A stretch of 60,220 nucleotides of DNA, the filler included, from Hausera hauseri (Eukaryota): NCBI GenBank assembly GCA_046269625.1. It is 10 parts of 10 records of this genome, joined end to end, with 100 filler letters (N's around TTAATTAATTAA, not from the genome) between each part and the next. Parts side by side here need not be neighbours in the genome. Positions count along the whole stretch, not along the records: positions 20,752 to 32,351 come from JBJURY010085546.1; 9 more parts are not named here. One strand, written 5' to 3'. The notes under the pieces were generated by a model that made no database searches, was not told the DNA's origin, and saw only the letters and a list, made by a program, of their open reading frames with translations. Position 1 is the stretch's first letter, and the number at the start of each line of letters is the position of its first letter. Shown here piece after piece: positions 6,685 to 35,800 of the stretch. The position numbers and the translations under genes were made by a program.

Positions 6685-6687
6685 TTT

Positions 6688-7344: not shown

Positions 7345-7602
7345 TTTACAACATGATTCTATACTAATTATAGCAGAGTGAGTAGTATTCGAAAGTAGAG
7401 CTTGGTTTGGGACGTTGTCAATTTAATTCTGTGTTTTTCGCTGATAGTGTTGCTGTCTTTTCTGGCAGCGCATGATAATAGTCTGATTCTGCTCGTAGCT
7501 GAATCTTTCCTTTAGCTAGATGAAGTAACACTTTGTTGGTTGCATCCTCTATTTGAAAAAGGTCCGTCAAACTTACATTATACATAGGTTTATCTATTCG
7601 TA

Positions 7603-9503: not shown

Positions 9504-9652
9504 CCATTTCTCATCCCCGCAAATTTTGAAATCATATTCCAGATTGATTAGAGGAATTTTGAATGGTTTTTTGTTATGATTAGTGTTACGCGGGTGGATA
9601 CTATTACTATTAGCAGGAATATATTATAGTATATTAGGGGCTGCTTTATTGG

Positions 9653-10102
9653 TTAAATTGACGGTGTTCCATTGTGTTTAGGAGGAGTGGTAGATTTCCT
9701 AAAAATGAATTTTCCTCTTTTCATTATCTCTTCGAGTGTTGGGAATCGAAATAGTGAATTTACTCCTCTTTTGATTGTACTGACTTCCAATAATGCGACT
9801 GTTCTTGGTTTTCGTAATAGGTCATAGTAGGGTAACTGGATATTAGCTAAGTAAGGATAATCGGATATTAATTGAGCACACTCAACGTATGTGCTGGTAA
9901 TTAGAAAGCAAGCGACATTGGCGTTTTCAAATGTGATAATAAAATCGGGATTTGGTAAATTGAACATTACACGATCGGACCTCACTTGAAGATAAATATC
10001 CAATGGTTTGAATGGAATTATTTTGATTCGTTCTGGGCTTTGTCGTAATCCTTCTATCAGATAGGGAATTTTGTTATGTACGGAATAGATAAAAATTTTC
10101 AA
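9653..10102 (-). CDS. hypothetical protein
   Basis: 149-aa ORF on the coding strand, no recognised motif. Confidence 0.35.
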   Translation of the reverse strand: MKIFIYSVHNKIPYLIEGLRQSPERIKIIPFKPLDIYLQVRSDRVMFNLPNPDFIITFENANVACFLITSTYVECAQLISDYPYLANIQLPYYDLLRKPRTVALLEVSTIKRGVNSLFRFPTLEEIMKRGKFIFRKSTTPPKHNGTPSI

Positions 10103-11279
10103 CCAAAATGTATTTGAACAAGAAGATTGTAACTGTAATGTTAGAAGTTTTTGTCGATTATCATGCTTTGTACATAATATCGGAGGTCATGGATTTGTGA
10201 CCTCTAGAGTGTACATTTCCTCGCTATAACGTTTTGCAGCGCAGGATAGAGCATAGTGAGCTCTACAAATTTGAGGTGCAATTACTAGAATTTCATTTTC
10301 ATAAAATATTTTTGCATTAATTTGTTGATTGTCTGTAACTGTGGGAGTACACGGGATTGTTGGTGCTTTTCTTTAAATTTCTTTTACGGTATTTTTCCAT
10401 ATACCATTTACGAGACGAACATGGCAAATATTAGTAAATATTCCTGATCTGGACGTGCAAATATGCAGATTGACTGATTTTGTTCCCTAGAGTAGTGGAT
10501 ATTTTTATTGCTAGTGGAGGTATCGGCGTATCTGGTGGTTATTTACATTATTCTTCCCTTTGGTATTTTTCTATCCCACTCGACTGGTAGGCATTGTTTT
10601 CTATAGTTATGTTGAACTAGAAATATTCTTTTTTGTAAGAACAATCTATCAATATTAGTTTGTTCCTTTTGTTCTTGTGAATTATCTGTTAAGGATAGCG
10701 TGATTGTCTTTTGTTCTGTAGGTATAATTATTTCAATCGTCCGGTTTTCGGAAAGGGGTAAGTCTTTATTTCTTGATGTATGTACTTGTACCAAATAAAT
10801 GTCCTTGGATAACTTTACAACAACTTACTTTATGAGTAAAAATAAAATTACACACAATATTGATCGCCTGTAAAGTGTTAGTGCTCCCCATTCTTCTTTC
10901 AAAGGTTTTGTATTTTCTGTTTTGTTCTCTTAAGGGGAGAATTTTATAAGTAGGCACTTACTCTTGTGGTTATACTAAATGAAAAGATTTCCTGGTGCAG
11001 CTTCTTGGATATCCCTTGGTTCTGTTTTCGGGTTTCTTTTTGAAATTTTATAAAATCCGAGAATGTATGCGGCACTACTTGATTGGGCAGGCTTGTCGTT
11101 ATTTTCTGAGAACTTAGAGTTTTGTATACAGCAAACTAATATACTCAAGTGTCGAATCATCCGATGAGATTTTGGGCCACTTCTGATTACGTTATGCCTG
11201 GCGCCGATGTTATTGAGAGGCTTAGTTATTAAATTATTGCTAAATCGTACTTCGTGAGAGGCGGTGTTCTTTCTAGATT

Positions 11280-12650
11280 ATCGGCGTCTTCTGATACACA
11301 GGACCAGTACTGGTATTAAGATAATTGTGATAACAAAAGGGGGTATAATAGTTACTAGTAATAACAATCCAAAATCTTAATTTTTTGTTATATTTGTCAA
11401 CTTATTTTTTGCTAATACCTTGCTTTTGCGGGTTGTTGTCTGTGGTTTCCTAAGGAAGTTGGGTTGCTTTTCGGTTGTAGTTATGTGACATAATGCTATT
11501 GTTCTTAGTTTGAGAGACGGTTCATAAGGTTGGAGTATTAACTGCACCCAATAGAGGTATTGGAGTCTAAGATTATCGCATTTGATGGATGTATTTGTGA
11601 GCAGAAAACAATTGGTGATTGCATCGTCGAATGAAACCATATAAATTTGATTAGAAAACTTAAATATGACATAGTTGTCATTCACATGGAATGAAATGTG
11701 TAATGGATTGAAATGAATTGTTTTAATATACTCAGGGAGTTGTATTCCGTCGTAAGATGCGCGTAGTGGTGTATTGAGAGTATCAAATTAGGTATTGCTT
11801 ATCCAAAATATATTGGATGGTAGTTTCAGAGTCATTTGTATTTGTCGATCGTTACCCGGTACACAGATCCTTGACGGTTCTAGACTGGAATATTCTACAT
11901 TATAATCCTCTTCCTTCGTTAGTTTATCTGTGCAGGTTATAATATATGACTAATTTTTAATCGAGGTACGATTCCTATGAGCCCGATGGAATTTTCTACA
12001 TCTGCGCTTATTGACTGTTCATATTCAGGTATTGGGCGGCATGTAATATCGATTGATTTAATATTGCTTTCCTTCGTTATATTTTCCACTTTAGATTTTG
12101 TTTTTATTGGCATAATTGTTGTTATTTCCGCGGGTATCGTGACGAGGATAGTTCGTCGCATGGTAATGTTGTAACTTAAGCCACCTATGAGTTCCGATAC
12201 TTGAAATATTAAGGAATACGTGCCCTTGGGAAACGCGACAACATTTGTTTTCCTTTAATTCAGAATGTGCAACACAAATGGTTCTATATGATTCAAACAA
12301 CGTTGCTGCATCCTTTTCTTGTCCTATCGTTTTGTTTGTATATGCTATGTTTTAAGTATTTCTTCTCAGGGCTGTATTTGATGGAGAAAATCTTGAAGGT
12401 GAATCGTTGATTATCCTTTAATTCGAATCTTGTACTTTCTGGTAGTTTCAAATAATCTCGAAATATGGTGCGTGATATTTGTTCGCTAGAGAAGGCTGAA
12501 ACTAGGTTTAACTTTAATTGAGGTGTTGGGGTTATTTGCGCTAATAAGCCTGGTATATACATCGGTAATATACATCGGAATTTATTCCTACATGAGGTTG
12601 TGCCTATTATAATTGTGAAAATATTGATCGTTATTAGTAGAGCTTTCTCA
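11280..12650 (-). pseudogene. type I membrane protein with FN3-like ectodomain, fragmented
   Basis: Signal-like 'KALLITINIFTIIIGTTSC', 'NKCCRVSQG', 'IKCDNLRLQYLYWVQLILQ', and TM 'LFVITIILIPVLVLCIRRRR'. Confidence 0.5.
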
Positions 12651-13832
12651 TGGTTCCTAGGAATATATTTATTAGTTCTTATTGATAAGGCATTTCTTTA
12701 CCACATCGGATCCATTTGACTCTGTGGGTAAATTTATTAAGGAGGTGGCTCTTTTATATAATCGATTGCTGATGCTCTCACAGTTTCTGAGAATATTGCT
12801 GTTGATTGTGTCAATACGTTCGTAATACATAGTGCTAAGATACATGAAAATTATACCATTTGGCTGAGTTTTGGCTTTATAACTTGATGGTTTATTTAAA
12901 CATTTGCGGTTGATTATCCCATTCGGCAGAGTTTTCATTTGTAGTGGGTTCTTCTTTTGGTGTGGGATTTGAATTATCTGGTTCAGGAGAGTTTTCATTT
13001 GTAACTGACTCTCCTTTTGATGTGGAATTTGAAATCAGTTGACTTAGTTTACTAATATTGTTATCTACTTCTGCGCAAGATTTCTTGTCTCTGACGGGAC
13101 ATATAAATTTATACCTCTTCTCATTTAAGTGTCGGCTTATATCGGTGATCTGTTTATGTATTTTTGTGAGGTATTGCAATCAAGGCATTGTAGCCACTGG
13201 AATTTCCTCCGCTGATAAGTCTATTAAATAATCTGTTAAATAACATCCTTCCTTCTGTAAGAAATTGACGTGGGTCAATCCTAAATAAGCAGTGATTCTA
13301 CTGGTCCATCTGGCGTAAATTACTCCATTACGGTGTGCTCCATATTTTTGAGCAAGTGTATCCAATCTTGCGTCATGTAATTGTACTGATCGGTAATAGA
13401 TTTCGATGGTGTTTAGTTGTATTATTCTAATTATTTCTTTGTCAGTTACTTTTATTCCTTTAGGTTAGTCTCGTTTTCTGTTAAAACTATGAAGGAGAAC
13501 TTGGATCATATATTGTATGATTTCTTCCGCATTGAAGTCGGGTGCTAGAACAAATTTATTAATATGTAAGTGATCTACCATTTGTTGTAGTAGTTTCTGT
13601 TGTTCATATTCGTTAAGGCAATAAAAGTGATCCAAGTATTGACTCTTGATCCAATTAATCGTCCTTCCTGGTATATTATTATGGTTCAATCCTAGTTCTC
13701 ATACGACTTGTTATATCCATTTGTCAATTTCTNNNNNNNNNNNNNNNNNNNNNNNNNNNNNNNNNNNNNNNNNNNNTTAATTAATTAANNNNNNNNNNNN
13801 NNNNNNNNNNNNNNNNNNNNNNNNNNNNNNNN

Positions 13833-14393
13833 GAAGAAAAGTGTTGACAGAGATGTGCTACAGATTCGCAATAGACATTGTCTCCAATCGATACGTATGA
13901 CGTTGACACTCTTTCTGTTTTATAGGTAAATTTCTGGTAATATATGGGATTTAATCTTGGATTAACTACATATTCACTTTTAATATGTTGAAATTTGTAC
14001 TCTATATTTTTTAATCCAAATTTCTGCGTCATCTCAGAAGACTCAAAGATAACAGTAAATTCAAAATCTGCCATAAAATGTAAGTTTTGATCTAAAATTA
14101 AAACACCAATTTTGCCGTGTGAACCGTAACTTGCTTCGGTCGTGCAAATGACCGATTCACCAACTGTTATTTTATTGTTAATAAGTGTCAGATTAACAGT
14201 CTTGTTGTACGTTATTTTCATACTACATTTGAAGTTCATCGGTGCGTAGGGAAAGTTCAATTCCGTCAGTGCAACCTCACATTTTCCAGATAAATCCAAA
14301 TGATTGTTCCAATCTACAACTTATTCACTGGCGGAATTGTTCCAAGGAATCATTGGACAACCTTTGCTCGACAACACCACGTAAATCCTCATG
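13833..14393 (-). pseudogene. Polinton minor capsid protein (second copy, cut by contig end)
   Basis: 'LDLSGKCEVALTELNFPYAP...YVSIGDNVYCESVAHLCQHFS' is closely similar to 217-810. Confidence 0.85.
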
Positions 14394-14431
14394 ATCTCGA
14401 TGATGATGATGATGATGAAGCCGTTTGTTTA

Positions 14432-15502
14432 TTATAGACGACGTCGAAAATGTAACGTCAAATGTGTCGTTGACTCACATAGACATTTAATGGTTTCCCA
14501 AAATTCATCAAGCATATACACGGAAATACTGTGCACAATATTGTGAGACAATAATAAGTACATGAGGCTGAGCATATAAACGCGAACAGTTTCACCCGAC
14601 GATGTTTTGTACGTATCAGAATCCAGTTCGATAGAAGCCAGTAGTTGTTTGTGTTCTCCACCAACGAGTACGAATTCGGTTAAGTCCGTTAAAATGTTGA
14701 TTCTACGAAATGCTTCAGAGAGTTGTGGTTTGTATTTGGCAACAATAGATCGTCCAACAATGTTTTGATAGAATTCGCGTTTTGAAAAACCAGATTCCGA
14801 GCTAATAATTCATCAACGGCAAAATATGTAATATTGTCATGGAGTGTAATCGAAATATGACCATCTGCGTTTATTTCACATGTCGTTATGGCTAATGTAG
14901 CCATTTTATTCACGTACTCACACAATTCCAGTTCCGTTTCCATTAGTAAATCATGTGGTATAATATATGAGCGGAAGACTGATTCTTACTTACTCCACTT
15001 TACCATAATATTGCATTCTGCATTGGATGAAAGGTCCAATTTTTCACCAATTATAACATGTCCACCTAGCCTTAGACGTTTTGAGTGTACATTGGCTGAT
15101 TGAAAACCCTATGCCTGAGCATCAGCTATATATTTAAACTGCATTCCAATGGGATTTCGACGCATTAGGTTCATACGGTAGTTTGAAAATTAAGCATAAA
15201 CCGAGAAATTTTGTCGCGAATAATTGCGAAGAGTATATCGGTTATTGTATCGGATTGTCCGCAAACGACTTGAAATAGGGTACGCTGCTCGTCGAGTAAA
15301 GTAAATATAACTGTTCTGACGTACTGTCATTGGTGAAAATGTAAATGTGCATTCGGTAAAGGCCCCTTCCCAGGCTCCCTAGCGTAAATAGATCGGTTGG
15401 TCCAAGTGCATAGTAAACTGTTTAGCGGTATTGTCATTGTCGTCGTGTTGTGATAATTATCTGTGACTATCAAGTACGAAGTAAATGATACTGCTGCTCA
15501 TT
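14432..15502 (-). pseudogene. Polinton minor capsid-like protein (first copy)
   Basis: Start 'IIYFVLDS..NTAKQFTMHLDQPIYL..AWEGAFTE'; end 'MYLLLSHNIVHSISVYMLDEF..THLTLHFRR'. Confidence 0.7.
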
Positions 15503-20335: not shown

Positions 20336-20864
20336 ATGTATTTCTATGTTATTTCTCTGTTCAAAACTTAAATTCAGATAGGTTATAATAAAAATAATCA
20401 TGGGCTATAATGGAAATTGTACACGTTTATTACAAATGACTTCAGTAACATGGCAGTAATTTGTACATTGCAATATGATAATACTCACGAAGTAAATGTC
20501 TATTGTTTACAATGAAAACAAACCAGTATGAACAAAATTTATATAAATATTGATGCAAATTTATTTCACATTTTTCTTCTTTAAACAATGTCTTTGGAAA
20601 ACAATTCAGGAGGTGACAGTTCCGTGAGACTCACAAAAGAATCAAAGTACANNNNNNNNNNNNNNNNNNNNNNNNNNNNNNNNNNNNNNNNNNNNTTAAT
20701 TAATTAANNNNNNNNNNNNNNNNNNNNNNNNNNNNNNNNNNNNNNNNNNNNACGCAATGGTGTTATTTCAGATCGGCATAAAGTCCGAGAATCATATAAA
20801 TGGTATGATGTCCAAAGTTTATTAACAACTCGACGGGGGTTCCGAGAAATTTGTCCCAAATTGA

Positions 20865-22301
20865 TCACTGGTCCAACATGATAGGCATGTGGACATATTT
20901 GCCTGTGGATTTGGATTTGTACCGTATGGCATCTGGCTCGTATATCTCGTCATCCAATACCAGGGTTTCATCCACCTGGATTTTACGTTTACTTCCACTT
21001 TGTGTTATCGTGGGTGTTTTTCGCACCGTATCGGAGGCCGTTCTTTGTATAATATATTCATCAGACCATTTTAATTGTTTGTATATTGATTGATAGCACT
21101 GCGCTAAGGCAGTGCTTCGGAGAGAGAAACCCTTTGTGTCGTAAAACTTCCGGGCAAGTTCTTTGAAGGTACTAGAGGACAATTGGTACCGGCGGATAAC
21201 TTCTTCGTGATATAAGATATCACGAACTCCAGCTATCCGTCGGATGGGACATTTGAGATGGTTAACAACCATCTCTACTACGTCGGCTCCGATGATCACT
21301 TTGTCCGTTAGTATTTCCGTTACCCTTCGATAAAAATCCATGGGATCGAGCTGGTTATTGATACTGGATTCGGTAAGGCCTGTTATGTGTGTATCAAAAT
21401 TATTGATACGCTGTCTTGGTGTAATGATGCCATAGAATAAGGTATCTCCGTTTAACGTTAGAATCGAGGCTTCGATAGGTTGAAGCTGATTCCACTGGTC
21501 ATAGGCCAGATTCACGGCTGCTATGACCAGATCTTTATCTGTTACTTTTTCCAGTCTTCTATAAGGAATGTTCTTATATTTTACATAGTCGGGTTCTGGA
21601 AGATGAAAACACTTTCCTTCAGGTAGGCTGGGGTACAATTTTTCTCGTTTAATAACTTCCATAGCTAATATTACTCGATTTGTACACGAGCGGATTTTGA
21701 ATATATTGTTTTGGAGGAAGGTATAATCGAACGCCAATGCATGTTCGTGCTCCATATTAATTAAATCGCCTCTAATGGATGTTTTCCTGTCTGTGGTCTT
21801 TATCTGAATCTGACCTACCACGCTGTATAGGTTCATTGAATGAAACCGTTCTGGTAGAATAATGATATCTTCCAAGAGAAACGATGTAGGCTTTGTGAGT
21901 TGTATTATAGCGAAAGACCGATTAGCCATACTGTATCCTTTTATATTGTTAGGAATTTGTGGCGTCTGGGGATAATTTAAACTCGTCATGTTATCGTTAT
22001 GCGATATGAAATATTGATTGGAAGGATTAGCATTGATCATATGATTTTTGACGTTGCTGAACCAGTGTTTGGAGCGGTTGATTGTCTGTATCTGGTGGAA
22101 CGTCGTAACTGATACTGTAAAAATAAGAGTCAAGACATAATTTATCACAATACTTAAATACAATACAACGGTTATCACATAAGCCAGGGGGGTAATCGTT
22201 GTAGTTTCATTATTATTATTTCTATCGCATAAGATAACTTTATGTCTTTTAGTTATCTTTTTATTTGGGGTTGCGTCTATTGCAATCCCTAAGAATAATT
22301 G
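20865..22301 (-). CDS. in-frame readthrough extension: hydrophobic segment plus ISG20/REX4-like exonuclease fold
   Basis: 41 stop-free codons link the TGA at 22302-22304 to ORF 20865-22178. Exonuclease-like core 'EASILTLNGDTLFYGIITPRQRINNFDTHITGL..VTEILTDKVIIGAD..RDI..FKELARKF'. Confidence 0.75.
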   Translation of the reverse strand, partial: QLFLGIAIDATPNKKITKRHKVILCDRNNNNETTTITPLAYVITVVLYLSIVINYVLTLIFTVSVTTFHQIQTINRSKHWFSNVKNHMINANPSNQYFISHNDNMTSLNYPQTPQIPNNIKGYSMANRSFAIIQLTKPTSFLLEDIIILPERFHSMNLYSVVGQIQIKTTDRKTSIRGDLINMEHEHALAFDYTFLQNNIFKIRSCTNRVILAMEVIKREKLYPSLPEGKCFHLPEPDYVKYKNIPYRRLEKVTDKDLVIAAVNLAYDQWNQLQPIEASILTLNGDTLFYGIITPRQRINNFDTHITGLTESSINNQLDPMDFYRRVTEILTDKVIIGADVVEMVVNHLKCPIRRIAGVRDILYHEEVIRRYQLSSSTFKELARKFYDTKGFSLRSTALAQCYQSIYKQLKWSDEYIIQRTASDTVRKTPTITQSGSKRKIQVDETLVLDDEIYEPDAIRYKSKSTGKYVHMPIMLDQ

Positions 22302-23690
22302 TCAGCTGGGGTTGTCGATATCCAACGGGTTCGTTAGATTCCGCATGTCAATTCTAACCCAGCTCCTGTTTCGTTTGAGTCGCCTACATGCGAATCTACT
22401 TACTATTATTACTATGATTATCAATACTACAGGGGTTATGGTTCCTATGCATATTATTTCTAACCGCGAATACTTATACGCTGTTCGTGGAGGTTTAAGT
22501 GTTATCTTATGAGTAATCGTCTTGGTCCTATTACGTACAGTTATGTCATACTTTATTTTCGTTATCGCTGTCATTATCTTAGTGGAGGTTACTCTATCTG
22601 TATCGTCTAGCAATTGTAAAATTATTGTGTATTGGGTGTTCGAGTCTAGAGCTGCACATGGTGCTACCAAATCATCCGGGGTTATTATTCCTTTAGCGAC
22701 CACTATTTCTTGTTTCTTACAAGAGAATTTAATCTTGACAAAATCTAGGTCCGGTCTGACTGAGATGATTAATGCAGATGGGGCTGCTATTATAGTGACG
22801 TTCTCCCATATAGATCGTTTCGCCCGATAATAAGATGAGTAAGGCTTAACTAATATAGTCATTTCTCTTTTATCAGTCGAGGGCTGTTCAGAAGATACTA
22901 TATTCTTTTCGGGCATATCGTTGTATTCTTTAGGGTTTTTATATCGTATATACATAGTCGGTCCTTTTCTATGCATCTTATTCCTTAATTTTCCGTATTC
23001 CTTTCGTGACAAGGTGTACTTTACTTCGTATATTCTACCTCTTGTTACATTACAGCAGACCTGTTGTTGTTCTTCTGTTATCTCGCATTTCAACGATGGC
23101 TGTTCTTTTCCTGTGTCTTTTATGGATATTGTTATCCATCGGATATATTCTAATTCTATCAAGCTCCTAATTTCTAGACAACTTCGTCCACTTTTAAATC
23201 CCATTGGTCTTATCTTCACCTGTTTAAGTATTATTTCATCGAGCAATGTATTATTCATTTCTTGTCTATGCGGGACTCGCATGTATTTATGGAACTTAGT
23301 ATATAAACTATGATAAAAATCTCCTTGTTTCCTTATGAGTGTAAGATGCACTTCGTGTGTTCCTGAGGTGTGGATGGGGCATATTCTTTCGTTTATCGAT
23401 GATCGTAATATACAATCATCATTTAACTCACCAGAGTGTTTCTCATAACCGTAGATGGGGATTGTTCGTATTCTTATAATGTACTCGCCAGGCATTCGTC
23501 TTGTGGCATACCAGTGAATACATTTTTGACCTTTCATAGAGTAGGTTATTTGGTATTCTAAACTTTTTAACCATAAATCTTCGTTTATGGCTGCAGCATG
23601 TCGTATCTTCGCTTGTTCAATTTTTTGTTCTGTCATCTGTCCGGCTATTTGAGGTAATACATAAATGATGGTTAACAATAAACTCTTCAT
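22302..23690 (-). other. post-integrase domain: signal-like peptide, Cys-containing FN3-like ectodomain, TM helix, short tail
   Basis: 'MKSLLLTIIYVLPQIAG', tyrosine-corner-like 'LDSNTQYTIIL', TM 'IICIGTITPVVLIIIVIIV' followed by 'SRFACRRLKR'. Confidence 0.65.
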
Positions 23691-26600
23691 TGCCCCGTAC
23701 CTCTTATAGGTAGATTTTTCCGTTCTTACTTTTTCCTTTATGCTTAATATCCTTTCTTTTTCATTCCTTAACTCACTTTCTCGGGCTGCTGGTTTACATC
23801 TGTTGATATGGACCTTCACCGATGTATTATTTTTCTTTAAACATATATTTGGTAAACTTACTTTCTCTACTTCATACGGGCCTTTGTAAGGTCTATCCAG
23901 TTTAGAGGTTTTACCCTTTTTTATAGCTGGGGAATATAACATAACTTGATCACCTATTTTGATTTTTGGCTGTTTAGTCTTCTTATCGTAGTATTTCTTG
24001 TATTTGGATTTATACTCCTCTTGATTTCCACAAATCGTTTTGTAGGCTAATTGGAGACGTTCTTGCATTAGTTGTTTATAGTCCTCCACTTCCATTAAAT
24101 GTGAGACAGGTCTCACATTAAAGTCTAAGTCAATGGGTAATCTTGCGTCTCGTAAGTACATTAAATAAAAGGGAGTTTCCTTAGTGGCTTCATGTACTGA
24201 CGTTCGGTTTACGAATACACACGCATTGACATACTCGTCCCAGTCGTCCTGTCTGGTGTTTACTACTGTTTGCAGTTTTCCTTTTAAATCTCCAATATAT
24301 CTCTCAACTAATCCATTGTTTTCTGGGTGTCCTGGTGTGGAACGTAGCTTCAATATCTTTAAAATGTCATAAATTGACTGCATTACAGTTCCCGTTAGAT
24401 TTGAGGCCTGGTCAGTTAAAATAATTCTTGGGGCTCCGTAATTAAACACTACATTTTCCACAAATTTTTCAGCGATTGTGTCGGCCTTCATATCTGCCAT
24501 CGGTATGGCTACAACCCATTTAGTAAAGTAGTCAATAAAGACTAAGATATATCGGTTCCCATTCCGAGTTAATGGTAGTGGTCCCGTTATGTCCATTGCC
24601 GTAAATTCAAATGGTGCCGGGGGATTATCCCATACCTTTAATGGTGCTTTAAATTTGGATCCGGTGTTTTTTCGTGTGGCACATAACTTACAACTTTCAC
24701 ACCACTCTTGTACATCCTTCATCATAGTAGGCCAGAAATACTTTCGTTTTAATTTATTGAACGTCTTCCTGGGTGACTGGTGTCCACCGAGCAATCCATC
24801 ATGATATTGTGTTAACAGTACTGGTCTATTTTTCTTTGGGATTACTAACGCTGGTCCGTCTTGGTGAATATAGTATAAAAATCCATCTTTTTCCTCATAT
24901 GCCTCACCAAATCGTGCTAAGTGTCTGGCTAATTCGTTATCTTCTGGTAATACCTTATTCCTTATGAAATTTCTAATTATTTTTATTTCGAAGTCTTCCT
25001 GTTGGTTCTGTTTAATCTTTTCTACTGATCCATCCATACTCCATACTGCTGCTATTACTTCTTTCTTTACCTTTGGGTTTTCTGTCATTCTGGATAGATA
25101 GTCCGCATTGGCATTTCTCGTTCCAGGTTTATACTGGAAATTCAACGTGTACGGTTGTAGTTTCAGCGCCCATCGTAACAATCGGCTATTCGGATTTTCA
25201 TGTTGCTTCAACCACTGTAATGGTCGATGATCCGTATATATTATTAGTGGTTTATTTTCACTAATATAGGGTGAAAATATTTCTAAGGCGAATATTACAG
25301 CTAGCAGTTCCTTCTCAATCACGGCATATTTCTTTTGATGCTTGTTGAGTTTTCGTGAGGCATAGGCTACTGGGTGTTCCTTACCATCGTCACCCTTTTG
25401 TGATAGCACTGCTCCGACTCCATAATCGCTTGCGTCTGTGGCCAATATGAATGGTTTGTTCATATCTGGGTAGATTAATATTGGGGCAGTTACTAGTCTT
25501 TCCTTCAAGTATTGGAATGCTTTTTGACAATCGGTCGTCCAAACTACTGTATCTAGGTCCTCACGTAATAACTCATATAGAGGCTTTGCAATTTTACTAA
25601 AATCCTTTATAAACCTCCGATAATAATTTGCTAAACCTAAGAATCGACGTAGTTCTCTAACCGTTGTCGGTTTTGGGAAGTCTTTTATTTTTCCTAATAA
25701 TTTATCCTGTGGTTTCACACCATATCTGTCTACTCTATGGCCTAGAAAATCTACTTCTGCCTGAGCAAAGGAACATTTCTTCGAATTTATTTTCAGACCC
25801 ATGATCTCACACCTATCAAACAGGTCTTGCAGATCTTTCAAATGTTGTTGAAAATTGGGTGATGCTATTATTACATCATCAATGTATACCATGGCATGTG
25901 GGGCGTCCAATAATAGCAGTTCCGTACCTCTCTGAAATGTTGGTGGTCCATTCTTTAGCCCAAATGGCATCCTGTTAAATTCCCATAGTCCTTCTCCAAT
26001 GGAGAAGGCTGTCTTGGGTTTATCTTCCTCCTTTACTTCTACTTGCCAATAGCCTTTTTGCAAATCTATTGTTGAGAATATAGTTGATCCGTGAAGTCTA
26101 TCTAATATCTCATCAATCCTGGGCAAGGGATACGTATCCGTTTCAGTGATCTCGTTTAATGCTCGGTAGTCTATGCAAAATCTCATAGTTCCGTCCTTTT
26201 TCTTGACCATTACTACCGGGGCTGTCCAAGGGGAACAACTTGGTCGGATTATTTTGTTTTCCCTCATTTCCTTTATTATTTTTCGCGCTTCTTGTTTTTT
26301 ATCGTACGCTAATCGATATGGTCTCTTTTTGATTGGATTGTCCTGTCCTTTTTTCAATTTAATAGTATGTTGTATCACATTCATTGTACCTAAATCGTAG
26401 TCATTCTGCGCGAACCGGGCATTATTTTTTTGTAATAATTCTATTAGCGTCTTCTTTTCTTCTTGTGTTAAAATTTGACAATTATGTAACTTCTCGTGCC
26501 AATTAATATTAGTTGTTTTAATCTTCTTTAATTTTTCACTCGGTTCTCCTTTTAACTTTTCTTTCATTAATTTTTCTATTTTATCTATGTCAGACATTGT

Positions 26601-29600
26601 TGAGTTTGTTTCTTGTTTCACTATCCCTTCACTGGTTATAACTTCGCCCAGTCTTGTGTTCTTTCGTAGTCTTCTTTCTCTATTGGTCGTATTACAAATT
26701 CGTAAATGAATTTTTCCTTCTCTTACTTTGTCTACATGAGGCGCTATTAAAATTTCATATTTTTCCATCACTTGTGCAAAGGGTTCAAAGCACACCTCTG
26801 TTGATAGTATTGAACTTTCTATCTTTCCAGGCACTATTATTTCGGATCGGGGTGGTATTATGATATCTTTTGTTAACGCTACCTTTCCTCTACTTTTGTC
26901 TTCGTCAAACATTTTCAATTGGCTGGTTTTCACATCTATATACACATTTTCTAATTGGCTTAATACGTCACACCCGATTAAGATTTCGTTCGTTAAATTA
27001 TCGGCTATTCTTATCATATGTTTCACGATTTGATTGCCGATTTTAATATTTGCGTCAAGAACCATTTTTATTTCTTCTTCCGTACCAAACGCTCCTACAT
27101 TTATTAACGTAGTCTTTGGTCTCCGTAACTTCCTTTTCAATTCCTTAGGTAGTAGGCTTTTTCCCATTATCGTGGTGGTGGATCCAGTATCTAATAGAGC
27201 TATCATGGGATATCCGTTCACTTCGATTTCTATTTCTGGCCTTATAGATGACCTTTCTTCTTTGTCGTCGGTCTTATACGTAGGTTCATGTCTATATAAT
27301 CTTACGCCTTCTTCGAAGTCTTGTCGCATTTGTAATACTTGATCTGTTGGATACAATCCTGCATGCACTACGTATCTAGGAGCTGAAGGATTCGCTATAA
27401 GTTGTTCATTATATGGTTGTCCATGATACTCGTCTATAGGATCTAAATGCGGTAGATCGGTCACGAGCTTGTGTCTGTATTTCGATTTTCGTGTCTTTAA
27501 CATTATTTGTCTAATATTAGGTATTCTTTTATGTTCTGTCTTTGTCCTTCCTTGATCATAGTGGGTGTCATCATTATCAGGTATGCTATACACAGATTCT
27601 TTATTATCTCTCTTCTGTAATACTTTCTTCTTCCATCGTGCATCGTGATTCGCTAAGAAGCAACTTGCTACAGCTGGTATCACTGCTATCAGTATTTTCC
27701 ATGAACACCCTACTGCTGCGTGTATTCCATATGCTTTACCGAGGGCCGTAAATATTGTTCGTAGCGCGCTAATAATGAAATATATGGCCAGAAAACCCGA
27801 CGCTGCTTGTCCAAAATATAAGAACTTTCCCCACATCTTCTCCATGACATTTCTTGTTACTTTCTTCAAATAATCTTTACCCATAAGGTTTTCCCATTGT
27901 GGTGATCCTTCGCCGTCCCACATGACTCTCCGAGTCAGTTCGGTTATTACTCGTTGTCTTTGTTGTGGGAATAGTAACATTCGTCGGTAATCCTCTAAGT
28001 TTTGTTGGGTATATATTCCTCCTTGTGATATTTCTGTCAATGGCTCGAATTTCTGGTTTCTTTGGAGGTTAATCAAACTCAGTGTCTCTGGTTTAGACAC
28101 TGGTTCTCTTTTCGGCATCCTTATCCATTTGTCATTATCGATTTTAAACATTGGTGACATACTAAAAGTGCAGTTATATAAGGGAGTGGGCTTTACATGT
28201 GCATCAAGGAGTATCCTCGTTACTGGCATGACATATCGCGTTTCTGACTGGTAGACAACAGGTAATTCCATTATACATTCTTCCGTAGGTCTGATTGATA
28301 CTTCCACTTTCTTACATTCTATAGTTATTAAGACCTCGCCCATCACTCGTCCGATAACTCCGTCGCCAAAAGGTAATACTGGCGCTACCATGTCCGGATT
28401 CGTTATCACCAACGCCATTTTATTACGCATTATTTCGTAATTTAACTTGCATTCATTCATTATTATTTCTCGGTATAAACCTCTGATCTCTTTCCTTACG
28501 TAGTTGATCAGGAAATCTATTTTATTGTCAAAATATTGAGTCAGCTTTATGTCTTTCTTATCTACTTTAGTCTTCGCTCCTATTATTTCCTTTCTTGATA
28601 GGTAGATGCCCTTATAATTAGTCTTTGACATTTCTTCATTACATTTAGTTATCACACCCGTAATTTTAAATCGCATCATTTCTTCTGGATTCTCTGAATA
28701 GACAATTGTAGCTACTTCATTCATCTTAACTTCCTTTGTTCCCTCTTTATACGTTGCCGTCTCTTTTTCTGCTGTCTTCCCTACCGTCTTATTAAACTTT
28801 CCTTCTTTCAACAATGTCAACTGACATTTGCTTGCGGTTGTTTCCCAAGTCATTTTTGACTCTCCCGTATCGCATTCACCATTATCGTATTCACATTCGT
28901 TCATCGTTGTCATCAATTTTGTTTGAGAATCGAATAATCCTTCGTATTCTTTTAACTGTACCTGATAATCTTCTATGGCCACTGTTCTAGGTGCGATAGT
29001 GCCTCCAACGTCATAATCCACTCCTCTACAGGTTCCCTCCATTGTCTTATCTATCCGTCCGGCTCTAAAAACCCTCGTGTATTTTACTCTGTTTCTTACT
29101 GCCGGTATATGTGCATTCTGTATGGTTATAATGCCAATCTTAAAGGCATCCTGGCATTCTGCTCGGGATATTATTATCGGCTCGAAGGGTGTTGTAGGTT
29201 CAATTATGGCTGAATTTCCTGAGTAATATGCACAATTAAATAAGAAGAATGATTTCTTTACATAGCATTCTCTAATCTTTGTTTTTATAAATTCGGACTC
29301 TTGATATACCCAGTACGCAAGGCCGCTGGTGGTTGTCAGTTGTTCTGGGTCGGCTTCTGGACATTTTTCTAAATCAACCAACGAATACTTTTGTCCTTCT
29401 CTGGGTTTGGAACAGTCATATGCTATAATTCCTACGGCTTTTGGCAACAACAATGAGGTGATTAACAGAATTTGTATGATTTCCATTATTGACATGCCCG
29501 TTATACCTGTCCGAGGCATCGTTGCTTGTGTCCCCGTTGATCTATCTCTTCCTCGTTCTTCCGTCCTGGTTATGTTCGTCATCAGACTATTGAGCCATCC

Positions 29601-32045
29601 ACCTCTGCATTGAGCCCAATTTCCTAAAGTATCCTTTAAAATCTTCACGACTGTTTTTATATTCCGTTCTATTTCTTCCAGGTTTTGTGTCTGATGATTG
29701 ATTACTATTATTTTATATAGTAAATAAGATATAGCCGTTTGGACCTTTTCCCGCGTAATGCCTGTGGCGAACATCTTTTCCAAAATATCTAATTCGTGCA
29801 GCTCGTTTATCCTTTCCTCTTCTAAATTTTCGTAAAATTGTCTGCTTATTCTCAACACATTATTACGTAGTGTATTAAATACTTCTTCCGGAATCGTTGC
29901 CTGGGTATCAAAAGAGGCAAATGATGTGTGCATCCTTGCCAGTAACGTTCTTAATAAGGAATCTATGTCTACCGATTCAGGATTACCATCTGTTCCTGCT
30001 AATAATAAACGCCTTACTATTTCTTCGTTCCTATCTTTCCTGTTGCGAATATCGCTTATTTTCGTTCCTCTTGGCCTGCCTCTTCTCTTTGCTTCATTTT
30101 GAACCGTTGTATCTCGCATATCGCACATGGGATTTTCCACCTCCCGTGGTTCCGTTCGTCTTATAATTTCTTCCACCGTTGCTTGTGCTCTCGCCTCAGG
30201 GTGTATTTCAATTATGTTTATCGGATTATAATTTTCACTTCTACACCCGATTCTCAATAATCGGTCATAACTGTACAAAGTCCTTCCATAATAACTTAGT
30301 CCATAATGGTTATCTTGATAAAATGGTTCTAGCTCTTCTATCTTATTTCGTAACGTTAATATATCGTCTATTTCGTTCAGTCGGATAATCCTTATATCTT
30401 GATTCCCTTCTTTTATTGTTATTCTAAGAGGTTCATTTCTTCCTTTCCTTTCCTCTGCAGCTTCGGCTAATACCGTCCTAGCTATTTCTTTTACCGGACT
30501 AGTATCATGGGCGAGTAGTACTAATTGCGGTAACATCTCGTTCAATTTTTCCGTCGTCATTTTACTTGTGATGGTTTTTAGTATTGTCACGGTTGTTTTA
30601 TCTACGTCGACTATATTATTAGGGTCAATGGCTAACACGGCTTCTATAATATCGTCTTCCTCGTCCAAGTCTACTCCTGGATTTCTTATTACTTGATCCA
30701 ATACGGTATCATCAAAAATGGGCGTGGCCTGTGTTTCTTCCGGACTAAATGAGGGTAAGGGAGTACTGGGACTACTCTTTTTTCTTCCCCTTTTCTTTTC
30801 TTTTACTATCTCTTCCCTCTCTGTTGACGTTTCTCTTGATTCAATTTCTTCATCAATTATTTTTTTGTTACCTTTCTTTTTTCCTTTGCGAAGGGCCTGT
30901 TTCTCCAATGGGTCACCTACCATGTAGGTATTACTTTCTTTCAACCTCTGCTGTTGTCTCTTATATTCTTTTACTTCTATTTCTAACTGTTTCTTCATGC
31001 ATGGGGATAATGAATTACTTATATAATTAATACTTTCTTTCTTCTTGTCTTTCTTTTCAATTTCTCGTTCACTGGCACTATCCTCCGTCTCGTATTCTCT
31101 ATCGGACGATTCATCTGATGTGGCGGATACATTATCTTTTTTTTGCTTATTCTTCTTTAGTTTTAAAGAGTCCTTTTGACGCGACCTGCATGATTTTGCT
31201 ATGTGTCCATACTTATTACAATTGAAACATTTTAATCTTCCTTCGGAGTCTATACTGGGTAATGATCTTCCATCTTTCTTATATTTCTTTTTGTAACTTG
31301 TTTTTTCTCCGTTATTTCGTAAATTAAATCTTACTTTCTTTTCTCCATCTGATTCAGCTTCTGTTGCTGACGTTTGTGACGGACTTCTATTCCTTTCATA
31401 TCGTTGGTACTTCTGCGTACTATTGTTTCTTCCTTTATCGTTCCCATTATTACTATTTCTGGCTTTGTTCCATCTATATAGTTCTGCATCCCTTTCAGCT
31501 TTTCGTGCTTTTCTTATTGCTTCTTGAAACGTTGGCGGGTCTGCTTGAGAGATTATCATTCGCAGTCTTTCCTCTAGTCCATATTGGAACTGGGCTAACA
31601 GGGCGTTATTCCGTATCGTAACGTCTGGGTAGGCTCTTGCTGCAAGTTTTTCCAATGCACATACAAAGTCCTGGACGGATTCATCTTTTCGTTGCCTTCG
31701 TCTTATAAATTCTTCAATTCGTCCCTTTCCAGAGGGATCTATCAAAAACTTCTGAGGCAGCTTTTCTTTTATATCCTTCCATTCTTTCTTTTCCTCTTCA
31801 GGCAGTTGGAAATAAACCATGAGAGCCGTTCCTTTCAAATGAAGGGGTAACCGTTCTACTCTCTGCTTATCGTCCCAGCCAAAACTTTTGGAATACACCT
31901 CGTATTCCATCATAAAATCTTGAATATCTTCTTTGCCAGAGAACTTTTTCATGGGGAGGGTGAAATCAGCTTTTGACTGAATCACCTGTTCTACTTTATT
32001 ACTTGTCATCGTTTCTTCTTCGCTTAGGTTGTCAAGATATTCCAA
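22302..32045 (-). CDS. 3247-aa Gag-Env(glycoprotein)-Pol-membrane protein polyprotein
   Basis: Gag with CCHC knuckle (31188-31229), signal peptide plus AYDC glycoprotein, PR 'LLDTGS' (27183-27191), RT 'YIDD' (25875-25886), RH 'TDAS/EKE/TDH/ADYLSR', IN HHCC plus D,D,E and 'GPY', C-terminal TM. Confidence 0.97.
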   Translation of the reverse strand: MEYLDNLSEEETMTSNKVEQVIQSKADFTLPMKKFSGKEDIQDFMMEYEVYSKSFGWDDKQRVERLPLHLKGTALMVYFQLPEEEKKEWKDIKEKLPQKFLIDPSGKGRIEEFIRRRQRKDESVQDFVCALEKLAARAYPDVTIRNNALLAQFQYGLEERLRMIISQADPPTFQEAIRKARKAERDAELYRWNKARNSNNGNDKGRNNSTQKYQRYERNRSPSQTSATEAESDGEKKVRFNLRNNGEKTSYKKKYKKDGRSLPSIDSEGRLKCFNCNKYGHIAKSCRSRQKDSLKLKKNKQKKDNVSATSDESSDREYETEDSASEREIEKKDKKKESINYISNSLSPCMKKQLEIEVKEYKRQQQRLKESNTYMVGDPLEKQALRKGKKKGNKKIIDEEIESRETSTEREEIVKEKKRGRKKSSPSTPLPSFSPEETQATPIFDDTVLDQVIRNPGVDLDEEDDIIEAVLAIDPNNIVDVDKTTVTILKTITSKMTTEKLNEMLPQLVLLAHDTSPVKEIARTVLAEAAEERKGRNEPLRITIKEGNQDIRIIRLNEIDDILTLRNKIEELEPFYQDNHYGLSYYGRTLYSYDRLLRIGCRSENYNPINIIEIHPEARAQATVEEIIRRTEPREVENPMCDMRDTTVQNEAKRRGRPRGTKISDIRNRKDRNEEIVRRLLLAGTDGNPESVDIDSLLRTLLARMHTSFASFDTQATIPEEVFNTLRNNVLRISRQFYENLEEERINELHELDILEKMFATGITREKVQTAISYLLYKIIVINHQTQNLEEIERNIKTVVKILKDTLGNWAQCRGGWLNSLMTNITRTEERGRDRSTGTQATMPRTGITGMSIMEIIQILLITSLLLPKAVGIIAYDCSKPREGQKYSLVDLEKCPEADPEQLTTTSGLAYWVYQESEFIKTKIRECYVKKSFFLFNCAYYSGNSAIIEPTTPFEPIIISRAECQDAFKIGIITIQNAHIPAVRNRVKYTRVFRAGRIDKTMEGTCRGVDYDVGGTIAPRTVAIEDYQVQLKEYEGLFDSQTKLMTTMNECEYDNGECDTGESKMTWETTASKCQLTLLKEGKFNKTVGKTAEKETATYKEGTKEVKMNEVATIVYSENPEEMMRFKITGVITKCNEEMSKTNYKGIYLSRKEIIGAKTKVDKKDIKLTQYFDNKIDFLINYVRKEIRGLYREIIMNECKLNYEIMRNKMALVITNPDMVAPVLPFGDGVIGRVMGEVLITIECKKVEVSIRPTEECIMELPVVYQSETRYVMPVTRILLDAHVKPTPLYNCTFSMSPMFKIDNDKWIRMPKREPVSKPETLSLINLQRNQKFEPLTEISQGGIYTQQNLEDYRRMLLFPQQRQRVITELTRRVMWDGEGSPQWENLMGKDYLKKVTRNVMEKMWGKFLYFGQAASGFLAIYFIISALRTIFTALGKAYGIHAAVGCSWKILIAVIPAVASCFLANHDARWKKKVLQKRDNKESVYSIPDNDDTHYDQGRTKTEHKRIPNIRQIMLKTRKSKYRHKLVTDLPHLDPIDEYHGQPYNEQLIANPSAPRYVVHAGLYPTDQVLQMRQDFEEGVRLYRHEPTYKTDDKEERSSIRPEIEIEVNGYPMIALLDTGSTTTIMGKSLLPKELKRKLRRPKTTLINVGAFGTEEEIKMVLDANIKIGNQIVKHMIRIADNLTNEILIGCDVLSQLENVYIDVKTSQLKMFDEDKSRGKVALTKDIIIPPRSEIIVPGKIESSILSTEVCFEPFAQVMEKYEILIAPHVDKVREGKIHLRICNTTNRERRLRKNTRLGEVITSEGIVKQETNSTMSDIDKIEKLMKEKLKGEPSEKLKKIKTTNINWHEKLHNCQILTQEEKKTLIELLQKNNARFAQNDYDLGTMNVIQHTIKLKKGQDNPIKKRPYRLAYDKKQEARKIIKEMRENKIIRPSCSPWTAPVVMVKKKDGTMRFCIDYRALNEITETDTYPLPRIDEILDRLHGSTIFSTIDLQKGYWQVEVKEEDKPKTAFSIGEGLWEFNRMPFGLKNGPPTFQRGTELLLLDAPHAMVYIDDVIIASPNFQQHLKDLQDLFDRCEIMGLKINSKKCSFAQAEVDFLGHRVDRYGVKPQDKLLGKIKDFPKPTTVRELRRFLGLANYYRRFIKDFSKIAKPLYELLREDLDTVVWTTDCQKAFQYLKERLVTAPILIYPDMNKPFILATDASDYGVGAVLSQKGDDGKEHPVAYASRKLNKHQKKYAVIEKELLAVIFALEIFSPYISENKPLIIYTDHRPLQWLKQHENPNSRLLRWALKLQPYTLNFQYKPGTRNANADYLSRMTENPKVKKEVIAAVWSMDGSVEKIKQNQQEDFEIKIIRNFIRNKVLPEDNELARHLARFGEAYEEKDGFLYYIHQDGPALVIPKKNRPVLLTQYHDGLLGGHQSPRKTFNKLKRKYFWPTMMKDVQEWCESCKLCATRKNTGSKFKAPLKVWDNPPAPFEFTAMDITGPLPLTRNGNRYILVFIDYFTKWVVAIPMADMKADTIAEKFVENVVFNYGAPRIILTDQASNLTGTVMQSIYDILKILKLRSTPGHPENNGLVERYIGDLKGKLQTVVNTRQDDWDEYVNACVFVNRTSVHEATKETPFYLMYLRDARLPIDLDFNVRPVSHLMEVEDYKQLMQERLQLAYKTICGNQEEYKSKYKKYYDKKTKQPKIKIGDQVMLYSPAIKKGKTSKLDRPYKGPYEVEKVSLPNICLKKNNTSVKVHINRCKPAARESELRNEKERILSIKEKVRTEKSTYKRYGAMKSLLLTIIYVLPQIAGQMTEQKIEQAKIRHAAAINEDLWLKSLEYQITYSMKGQKCIHWYATRRMPGEYIIRIRTIPIYGYEKHSGELNDDCILRSSINERICPIHTSGTHEVHLTLIRKQGDFYHSLYTKFHKYMRVPHRQEMNNTLLDEIILKQVKIRPMGFKSGRSCLEIRSLIELEYIRWITISIKDTGKEQPSLKCEITEEQQQVCCNVTRGRIYEVKYTLSRKEYGKLRNKMHRKGPTMYIRYKNPKEYNDMPEKNIVSSEQPSTDKREMTILVKPYSSYYRAKRSIWENVTIIAAPSALIISVRPDLDFVKIKFSCKKQEIVVAKGIITPDDLVAPCAALDSNTQYTIILQLLDDTDRVTSTKIMTAITKIKYDITVRNRTKTITHKITLKPPRTAYKYSRLEIICIGTITPVVLIIIVIIVSRFACRRLKRNRSWVRIDMRNLTNPLDIDNPS
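23790..27250 (-). other. pol: Pol region: protease, dUTPase-fold-like spacer, RT, RNase H, integrase
   Basis: All catalytic motifs are present, in Ty3/Gypsy order. Confidence 0.97.
27650..29495 (-). other. env: chuvirus-like (class III) envelope glycoprotein domain
   Basis: Internal signal 'MEIIQILLITSLLLPKAVG', mature start 'IIAYDC..YSLVDLEKC', Cys-rich ~550-aa ectodomain with 'GEVL..C..VEV..C..ELPV', 'PVTRIL', and a C-terminal 'WGKF..FG..SGFLAIYFII..AYGIH..VGCSWKIL' matching my recollection of chuvirus-type G. Confidence 0.8.
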
Positions 32046-32140
32046 TCCAAAAGGTATATTTTCTTCTTTTTGGTATATTGTCCCTTTTCTGGTAGTTATT
32101 TTGTTTCTGTTTATCTATAGGTCCTAACAAATTTATAGTG

Positions 32141-32159
32141 TTCCCGGGTCACGGCACCA
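32141..32159 (-). promoter_or_regulatory. primer binding site, tRNA-His
   Basis: Minus-strand TGGTGCCGTGACCCGGGAA is complementary to the tRNA-His 3' end (...GUCACGGCACCA), 3 nt after ...AACA. Confidence 0.9.
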
Positions 32160-32162
32160 GTT

Positions 32163-32351
32163 TGTTCAATTTTTCCTTTGTGATAAATTATTATAATGAA
32201 AATAAAGATATAATATTTTTTTATCTCTTTGAACAATTTAAGCGTGGAGGTTGGGAGAGCAACTATGAGGTGTATCTTACCTAAACAAGTACGTAATGTG
32301 TTTCAAGGAACGTGAATGACGTTAGACAATTCGTTATTTACTTAAGGATTA
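32163..32351 (-). repeat. 5' LTR, partial (U5 end)
   Basis: Ends in AACA just before the PBS. Cut by the linker. Confidence 0.8.
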
Positions 32352-33403: not shown

Positions 33404-33818
33404 TTATACAAGTAGGGTTTCTCCGCAGTCAAGGTCGGACGAGGCGCCAAACGAGTCTACCGTTGACGTGTTGTCTCGTTGACGAAAAGGACATGAGGAC
33501 GCGTCGCATGAACCCCCTCCGGCTTTGATGATGATGAAATAAATGACGTAGAGTCCACAAGTGTTACTAAAAACTTGTAAGGGTCGCTCGTTGTAGACGA
33601 ATTTACTGTCAGAGTTACGTTTAATAAAATCGTCAATGTCAGCGTGAAATGTGCCGATGCCGTCATAGTACAAGGCTATCCATTCGTATTTATGACAACG
33701 GCCACTGGCTTTGTTGGGTCGATGCGTTTGGGTAATATGTCGTGGGGCATGACTTTGACGGGATGTTGGCAGACGAAAATGTCAGATTTTAAAATTGTTT
33801 GTATCTGTCGAGTGTCAT
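33404..33818 (-). pseudogene. Polinton cysteine protease
   Basis: 'VVINT', 'YYDGIG', 'YNERPLQVFSNTCGLYVIYF'. The catalytic His region is missing. Confidence 0.8.
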
Positions 33819-33825
33819 CTTTATT

Positions 33826-35118
33826 TTATGCCACAAACGCCAGTAACACTTGTCTGGTTTTGGAAATTTCAATTATAGAGTCTTGTTTGGCATACACCAC
33901 GACTTGTAAGGGATCGGGCATCACGGCGGAAAATTTAAACTCTAGCGAAAGATGTCCGTTTTTCAAAAGGCCCCCGTCCAAAAGGCTGGGACTTATATTG
34001 AACGTGGAGAGGGCATAACAATCTTTAAAACTTTTGTAGTCGACATTGCAGCTGGCATCCTTACCGATCAGACCCATAGCTAGATTGGTTCAGAAAAAGG
34101 CTCGAGCGTAATGTTCGCGATCGAAATCTACCATTTACGGCTTCCCCATGGCCGTCCTCCCATCGACGGTGACGTTCAAGTACGTCAAACCAAAATGTTG
34201 AAAGTTGAACCGATTGTTTCTGTAGGTGCCGTTAAAAGCCGAGAAACTTACTATCCCAATCACGACGCGCGTCGGTGTTTGACTGAGGCAAAGATTGTCT
34301 TGAATGTGCGACAACATTCCTCTGGGTATGGACAATGTCTTTATCGCGACTCGTTTGATGGGGTATTTCGCGTTCACTGTAGTCAATGCTTTTTCGTGGG
34401 CCAGAGAAATGGCCGGATTTAATTAGGTTTTCCTGACCAGCAGGACGGTGCACGTTATAATTGATTTATAACCGAGCACAGGATCGTCGGCTATGAAGTT
34501 GAACGAGTCTTTTGAAGGGTTGAGTTTGATCTTTACGTCCACAGTTCAGCATGTAACGACCTTGGGTGAAGATGTCGCAGTGTAACTTTCCCATCATATC
34601 CACTTCTCGACTACCCGCAACCAACTCCCGACGCGTTTTTAGTACCACGTTAGAATCGGCTTTAGCTTCATCGAGAAATTTTGGCGTGTCGCTGTAGTAT
34701 AGAACTTCCGTCAGGGACCCATTTTGGCTTCCCGACCGTAATTGAAAACGGATTCGAGGTAACATCTGCAAGGGTAAGTGTTTTCGCTCGCCATGATCAA
34801 CGTGTCCTTCAGGGCGACGTCCACTTGTGAAAAGAAACTGTGCAGATAATTGTTGACCGGGGCCACTTCAGCACCATCAGGTAAATTGTTGCCGTTGGCC
34901 AAAGCAACTTTGGCTCTCACGTGTACAAAGGTATTAAACAAATCTAGACACTCTTTGCCGCTTCCTGATATTACAAATTCTATGGGTACCCCGGGAGCGA
35001 GAGAAGCGAGAGGGTGAATTTCAACAAACAGTCCTTCCTCTACCGCCGTTTGTGTTGGAGGAGCGCTAACAAATCAAAACCTGAATGGAGGCATTCGCTC
35101 GGGGTGTATCAAAGCCAT
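33826..35118 (-). pseudogene. Polinton major capsid protein, frameshifted
   Basis: 'PPTQTAVEEG..IHP..PIEF', 'APVNNYLHSFFSQVDV', 'LHCDIFTQGRYMLN', 'AKYPIKRV', 'FNFQHF'. Confidence 0.92.
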
Positions 35119-35581: not shown

Positions 35582-35800
35582 TTACTTTATTGAAAATCGG
35601 AATGTCTCCTGGGTCGAAAATGTAACGTCACCACCGAAGAACATTTCATGAATGGGATTTTTTGTCCCAGGTCGCTGGTTAAAAGTATTTCCACAGTGTA
35701 AAAAAAATTGACTCAGCGGCAGGTAGTGGGGTCTGTTGTAAATCCGAAACATGGAGGTCAAATTTCTATCCAAAATGGGCACCGTTCGTTACAAAGGCAC
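35582..35800 (-). pseudogene. Polinton minor capsid C-terminal remnant
   Basis: 'VPL*RTVPI..YNRPHYLPL', then a 'TLHFR'-type end after a frameshift. Confidence 0.7.

Follow-up and report, generated by a model that had tools for sequence, protein, structure and literature searches.

We analyzed a 60,220-nucleotide stretch of DNA from Hausera hauseri (assembly GCA_046269625.1), hereafter the window, which consists of ten pieces joined with N spacers. The piece at 20770-32351 holds a single retroelement on the minus strand. It is a gypsy-type gag-env-pol element that resembles flatworm errantiviruses and the planarian element Burro. A lone TGA parts its polyprotein open reading frame (ORF1) from a second frame, ORF2, which may be reached in two ways: by a predicted spliced RNA and by low-level readthrough of the stop. 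The features on which this reading depends are as follows.

22302..32009, minus strand: ORF1, 3235 amino acids (aa) counted from the first ATG (32009), with its TGA at 22304-22302
22296..22304, minus strand: TGA stop (22304-22302) plus CAATTA (22301-22296), a type I CARYYA context
20865..22301, minus strand: ORF2, 478 open codons in the same frame as ORF1
22231..22289, minus strand: two predicted RNA hairpins (22289-22267 and 22259-22231) beginning 13 nt past the stop, a candidate readthrough stimulator
22119..22187, minus strand: codons 39-61 of ORF2, a hydrophobic segment rich in T at each of the three codon positions; it overlaps the end of the predicted intron
22115..22133, minus strand: predicted 3′ splice site, with a branch-point motif (22133-22129), a pyrimidine tract, and AG at 22116-22115
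23426..23431, minus strand: best-scoring donor (first of 478 GT dinucleotides, phase 1), a candidate partner
31997..32002, minus strand: weak donor candidate, phase 1, 7 nt past the gag ATG (rank 103 of 478)
21642..22100, minus strand: predicted AlkB/cupin-like double-stranded beta-helix domain (ORF2 residues ~68-220; ALKBH6, Z 13.6, root-mean-square deviation [rmsd] 3.6, 148 aligned)
21054..21533, minus strand: predicted ISG20/REX4-like DEDDh fold (ORF2 residues ~257-416; ISG20, Z 17.8, rmsd 2.5, 156 aligned)

At the end of ORF1 the minus strand reads AGC TGA CAA TTA, as a preliminary description of this DNA had reported, and the 478 codons that it counted beyond the stop are indeed open and in the same frame. 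CARYYA follows 2 of the 726 stop triplets in the element (0.3% by chance) and 13 of 6602 in the window. The identification of stop plus CARYYA as the tobamovirus readthrough motif also stands, CAAUUA being an exact hexamer match (PMC3542737). The tobamovirus type I signal functions with UGA as well (PMC3542737), and UGA-CARYYA gave ~15% readthrough in a mammalian reporter context (PMC4132726); PMC8310308 does not mention the motif. The stop is not an assembly slip, because contigs from two runs cover the region without a gap: one from run X1, possibly the source sample, spans 21794-22393 with 0 differences at depth 56, and one from run X2, which carries another organism label, spans 22022-22397 gap-free over 376 nt with 2 substitutions whose positions were not placed. 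None of the 40 variable places listed, out of 4601, lies at the stop, a share too partial to be informative. Summed read depth over this region suggests that several relatives of it exist.

The 62-codon linker between the stop and the start of homology stays open in 0.54% of base shuffles and in 9 of 5000 dinucleotide shuffles, and the other two frames of the region carry 9 and 8 stops. The empirical rate for the whole window, decayed coding DNA included, is higher (227 of 6500). A codon-usage test of the linker mainly registers that stops are absent and is not taken as a further line of evidence. The hairpin window has a z score of −3.7; 1 of 200 shuffles was equally stable, and 3 of 128 tiling windows of the element were as low. 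An Rfam scan found nothing above chance. The most stable RNA folds of the element among the 128 windows both lie inside ORF2, at 21281-21192 (z −6.3) and 21551-21462 (z −4.3), and are possible packaging or export signals.

ORF2 has no evident start of its own. Its first in-frame ATG is at 22040 (codon 88), past the hydrophobic segment, so the earlier observation that no ATG precedes this segment holds; the argument built on it is weaker than it seemed, the segment being in part the reading of a predicted T-rich splice tract. Initiation at codon 88 was rejected, since the conserved FY helix would then be lost along with the fold's first strands. Out-of-frame ATGs follow the stop at 22230, 22210, 22180, and 22138.

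The splice signals lie within the same stretch. Under four weight matrices the acceptor AG at 22116-22115 ranks 1, 1, 1, and 2 of 919 AGs in the element; the branch-point motif is 15 nt upstream, and the closest upstream AG is 38 nt off. The site falls 190 bases past the stop at codon 62-63, where homology starts and just ahead of the start of the fold. The predicted exon begins in phase 1, and a second in-phase AG lies at 22110-22109. Synonymous recodings of the same peptide match the acceptor score at P = 0.0003, five other hydrophobic segments score ≤2.2 versus 10.3 for the acceptor, and the T content of the segment is 34 versus 28.7 expected from its amino acids (P = 0.011); acceptor strength is therefore not explained by hydrophobic coding. 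Judging from the sequence, the hydrophobic segment would in part be a translation of the T-rich tract at the intron end. An alternative acceptor at 22289, with the stop as branch point, was rejected because it ranks only 32 to 118 of 919. We also noted that all five GTRAGT donor-consensus hexamers of the element lie at 24691-22403, with zero in the 7.6 kb from the end of the long terminal repeat (LTR) to 24692, a gap that may reflect avoidance of cryptic donors there.

We next turned to ORF2 as a protein. A full HMMER scan returned 31 relatives at E ≤ 0.001, all of which match ORF2 only and none the sequence upstream of the stop. The nearest, P0003, which was also the sole match in word-based protein searches, is 56% identical from residue 62, with an abrupt drop upstream of the acceptor; codons 1-61 show no conservation, and what follows is a conserved open frame. 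DNA of the relatives was found in none of the metagenome contigs, viral contigs, or prokaryote genomes, and the Atlas yielded no usable match for ORF2. Among the 28 aligned members, 14 have a match to Pfam RNase_T, whereas ORF2 has none, and the family profile matches ISG20L2 at E 2e-25. The fold assignments come from a model built on the 28-sequence alignment (predicted local distance difference test [pLDDT] 75), an alignment too diverged for a pattern scan; a two-sequence model (pLDDT 32) was discarded. Of 23 aligned relatives, 13 retain the ExoI D-x-E and ExoIII H/D residues, which are absent from ORF2 (family member P0002) and from P0003. ORF2 is thus a conserved, real gene for a predicted pseudoenzyme that joins AlkB-like and ISG20-like domains, predicted as such because its ISG20-like fold lacks the ExoI and ExoIII catalytic residues. 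One relative, P0013, has a C-terminal RING finger, so the family is also found fused to a likely cytosolic ubiquitin-ligase domain.

The N termini of the family bear on how ORF2 starts. In 22 of 23 aligned relatives a Met lies 10 to 45 residues before the conserved FY motif, of which 8 are internal, whereas a Met at residue 1 may be a GTG or TTG converted by the gene caller; ORF2 is the sole member of the 24 aligned without a Met before that motif. This count adds P0037 and omits P0010, P0014, P0015, P0020, P0021, P0025, P0027, P0031, and P0033, which comprise fragments, one near-duplicate in type, and one host-like multi-repeat protein. Nothing hydrophobic lies upstream of FY in 18 of 22 scorable relatives, and the four that have such a stretch (P0003, P0013, P0030, P0037) also carry an internal Met. 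P0037 is a 54-residue open hydrophobic N-terminal extension of its cluster mate P0009. Most ORF2 relatives would accordingly appear, from sequence, to be soluble proteins with their own Met, and the hydrophobic extensions look like read-outs of T-rich intron ends. A decayed, distant ORF2 member is present in the window itself, at 8199-6688 (probability 97.7), and shares with P0003 a hydrophobic-S-I-Q-Met arrangement. On the minus strand of 4050-8350 this relative has its own ATG, preceded by a pyrimidine tract, as well as a long N-terminal extension; past it come an ORF of 153 codons, a primer-binding site (near 4500), and the start of gag, one piece here holding both the 3′ end and the 5′ start of another family.

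ORF1 supplies the context for any fusion. Its frame is open from 32114 to 22302 (3270 codons, stop to stop), and its Pfam domains run in the order gag capsid, CCHC knuckle, class III fusion env, protease, reverse transcriptase, RNase H, and integrase; the last four in this order, with a class III env between gag and protease, fit a Ty3/gypsy GAG-ENV-POL errantivirus. There are weak matches to Bcl-2 before env (E 0.0086, below cutoff) and to dUTPase between protease and reverse transcriptase (E 0.067); Pfam families for MATH, BIR, and ankyrin have none at E ≤ 1 in ORF1, and zf-CCHC has one only. Three further features frame the element.

32142..32159, minus strand: primer-binding site, beginning TGG, 3 nt past a CA that may end the 5′ LTR
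27555..29483, minus strand: env (Monjiviricetes_fusion PF24664, E 1e-89), in frame between gag and protease
22305..23690, minus strand: post-integrase cassette, with a signal-peptide-like start (by eye), a Cys- and sequon-bearing region, a transmembrane segment, and a 32-aa tail

The 5′ LTR is incomplete, cut by the contig end at 32351, and the primer-binding site is presumably one for tRNA-His. Past integrase, ORF1 runs on for ~460 residues that have the look of a signal peptide, an ectodomain, a transmembrane helix (22457-22401; residues 3220-3238 of the open frame), and a short tail, and this cassette is predicted from its sequence to be a type I membrane protein. It has no Pfam match, and protein searches found no relatives. 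With a purine at −3, the first Met of the cassette could serve as a start on a separate RNA as well. The preliminary description gave the readthrough product as 3726 aa; from the first ATG it is 3714 aa, the larger figure would need initiation at a TTG (32045). Internal signal peptides are predicted in the polyprotein, so an intact product of 3.7 kaa is unlikely to persist and is probably cleaved.

Chance is a poor explanation for either set of signals, and for that reason our preferred reading, which we hold at a little under an even chance, is that both routes to ORF2 work: a predicted RNA spliced at 22115 and likely low-level readthrough of TGA-CAATTA. Taken separately, use of the acceptor is likely, and selection for readthrough is somewhat more probable than its absence; these are judgments, not computed posteriors. 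The earlier proposal of programmed readthrough thus keeps its hexamer and gains an open linker and 3′ hairpins, but a strong predicted acceptor now offers a second route, and the spliced mRNA for ORF2 that the preliminary description had set against its proposal has strong sequence support through that acceptor, as a prediction only.

In the two-route reading, a subgenomic RNA would join a phase-1 5′ exon that carries the start codon to 22114, much as in errantivirus env, with candidate donors at 32002 and 23431; start codons of the env exons of Drosophila endogenous retroviruses (iERVs) come from the 5′ exon (PMC12992720). The spliced product would be a soluble AlkB-like plus ISG20-like pseudoenzyme, probably RNA-binding or a decoy. 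On unspliced RNA, a few percent of ribosomes would pass the UGA, aided by CAAUUA and the hairpins, and carry on from the tail of the post-integrase membrane protein, by way of the hydrophobic segment, into these ORF2 domains. The leaky stop would then yield a minor membrane-tethered form which, after signal-peptidase cuts, would measure ~925 aa and not 3.7 kaa. Readthrough into a long open frame may also shield the genomic RNA, with at least 1.5 kb behind the pol stop, from nonsense-mediated decay (NMD); in reporters, readthrough protects from NMD in proportion to the length of the downstream ORF (PMC5360307). Such protection would explain selection for leakiness at the stop even if the fusion protein itself were of minor importance. 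That a selected tobamovirus-type leaky stop and an overlapping acceptor together give tethered and soluble forms of a dead AlkB/ISG20-like protein, with NMD protection besides, is a proposal that we advance only tentatively.

Several points weigh against the two-route reading. P0013, P0037, and the relative at 8199 likewise have open hydrophobic upstream extensions of at least 50 codons, which makes an open linker less unusual within the family than the shuffles suggest. The hairpin window was picked after a first fold (z −2.1), with two windows tried, and the splice matrices are handmade and generic and may not fit the host. No donor that comes with an ATG is convincing: the one at the gag start is only 103rd of 478, and 23431, the highest-ranked, sits behind a signal-peptide-like segment. 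The long pyrimidine tract at 8199 is without an AG. Topology is the chief obstacle for readthrough: a basic stretch followed by 23 hydrophobic residues would probably direct the ORF2 domain into the lumen, and there, if the segment does cross the membrane, an RNA-enzyme-like domain with folds typical of cytosolic or nuclear enzymes would have no obvious use. A role of the leak in protecting the RNA might be a way round this. Finally, two mechanisms are invoked where one might suffice.

The strongest competitor, which we consider unlikely although it must be taken seriously, is that ORF2 is expressed from a spliced subgenomic RNA only, the CARYYA and open linker being coincidence or relic and any leak unselected. 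The rank of the acceptor, its branch point, the recoding test, and its position at the homology boundary all fit this explanation, as do the Met carried by nearly all aligned relatives and the scarcity of hydrophobic stretches among them; P0037 compared with P0009 shows that such extensions arise from upstream DNA, and SIRE1, the plant precedent for readthrough, is termed atypical even within Sireviruses (PMC2829016). It requires, however, that the hexamer (0.003), the shared frame (1 in 3), the open linker (0.002 to 0.035), and the hairpins all be chance, and it does not account for the lack of an own Met in ORF2 alone among its family.

The converse, that ORF2 is reached by readthrough only, as the next signal-plus-domain cassette made at a set low ratio, with the acceptor-like tract a by-product of coding for a helix, strikes us as distinctly unlikely. 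The hexamer, open frame, and hairpins speak for it, and so do the hydrophobic stretch of P0003 at the matching place and the N-R-S sequon at residue 75 that ORF2 and P0003 have in common; the polyprotein already contains such cassettes, and accessory ORFs of Burro alternatively occur as polyprotein subdomains (PMC6431247). Yet the strength of the acceptor given the peptide and the T excess are left over, the identity with P0003 falls sharply upstream of the acceptor, and both folds are typical of cytosolic or nuclear RNA enzymes.

It is improbable that the start of ORF2 was lost or displaced in this copy or lineage, leaving ORF2 weakly expressed or silent here, with initiation, present or past, at the out-of-frame ATG 22210 or at near-cognate ACG 22106 or 22103. 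An own Met is the rule in the family, and ATG 22210 is roughly aligned with the called start of P0003; that start, however, may be a choice of the gene caller, with the internal Met29 fitting the family pattern better, the X2 contig is gap-free over the region, both ORFs are otherwise intact, and the hexamer would be left unexplained. That the TGA is a recent nonsense lesion in one fused polyprotein of 3.7 kaa is very improbable: the frame is shared without a second stop, and one lesion is expected in a young 11-kb copy, but it would have to hit a short interdomain linker (~2% of codons) and precede CARYYA (0.3%), and no fused ORF1-ORF2 relative was found among candidates of 869 to 2480 aa (a weak search) or among the 31 representative matches.

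Other pieces of the window hold further mobile DNA. Two decayed sister gag-env-pol elements, with 29 to 46% identity in env and pol, lie on the minus strand at 39151-43437 and 47793-55814, neither reaching the 3′ accessory region. On the same strand, 8451-13732 contains broken ORFs, among them an ankyrin-like part at 9108-9623 (by eye), together with a tandem repeat of 60 nt (12913-13032); this stretch may represent a Burro-like element's accessory region. Fragments of capsid and DNA polymerase B genes, decayed and by eye Polinton-like, occur at 604-2979, 33800-35000, 35702-36955, and 56191-59448, and the pieces at 1-812 and 13833-14602 are inverted copies (85 to 93%).

In the literature searched, which covered few subscription papers and, for the PMC13524379 supplements, flatworm rows only, we found no case of readthrough past pol in an animal gypsy element and no description of an AlkB-plus-ISG20 accessory ORF. 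Retroelement-borne AlkB-like plus ISG20-like folds, as modeled, would be a cargo family of interest in which some members look active and others dead. The element is a compact, testable example of how single-polyprotein elements might dose accessory proteins and escape RNA decay, and it carries a warning that what reads as a hydrophobic segment, in an ORF without a start, can be a translated intron end.

In overall layout the element belongs with known company. The gag-env-pol order is known from flatworm, nematode, and bryozoan errantiviruses (PMC13524379) and from planarian Burro (PMC6431247). The host is likely a flatworm. As in Burro/GYPSM1 and in flatworm errantiviruses with an HSV/gB-type env, env is inserted between gag and protease without a change of frame, and accessory ORFs are present; the weak BCL2-like match ahead of env and the weak dUTPase-like match between protease and reverse transcriptase may be further points in common. 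By eye, the start of env resembles the S. mediterranea env row in the PMC13524379 supplement. Unlike in Burro/GYPSM1, ORF1 is 3235 aa rather than ~4900 to 5100, has one CCHC knuckle rather than 2 to 3, and lacks MATH, BIR, and ankyrin matches. In the parts of these sources that were covered, neither readthrough nor an exonuclease is mentioned in the main text of PMC13524379, and the word "readthrough" has 0 occurrences in PMC6431247.

Like the DEDDy exonuclease ORF3 of the rotifer elements Juno and Vesta, ORF2 is, by its predicted fold, a DEDD nuclease-type ORF 3′ of pol, and rotifer ORF3s are typically expressed by splicing (PMC5408684); the present ORF differs in being DEDDh/ISG20-like, behind an AlkB-like barrel, and without catalytic motifs in its clade. 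In the spliced env of Drosophila iERVs, likewise, the start for the downstream exon is supplied by a short 5′ exon or from inside gag (PMC12992720); as described there, the linker does not continue pol as an open frame, and the cargo is env.

The readthrough signal shares its exact hexamer, CAAUUA, with type I UAG-CAR-YYA sites (PMC3542737, PMC4132726, PMC2754532), but the stop here is UGA, natural cases being generally UAG while UGA works in reporters, and the hairpins downstream recall type II signals. As the preliminary description had noted, SIRE1, a soybean Ty1/copia Sirevirus, expresses an env-like ORF past pol by stop-codon suppression, and it is the one element for which such readthrough into an accessory gene is documented (reported second-hand in PMC2829016). 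In both elements a single in-frame stop parts pol from a downstream accessory ORF. SIRE1 is a plant copia element, whereas the present one is an animal Ty3/gypsy element with env inside its polyprotein, a stop that follows an extra membrane cassette rather than integrase or RNase H, a downstream ORF whose predicted product is an AlkB-like plus ISG20-like pseudoenzyme, and competition from a strong predicted splice acceptor. If readthrough takes place here, it would extend the recoding strategy of SIRE1 to invertebrate endogenous retrovirus-like elements.

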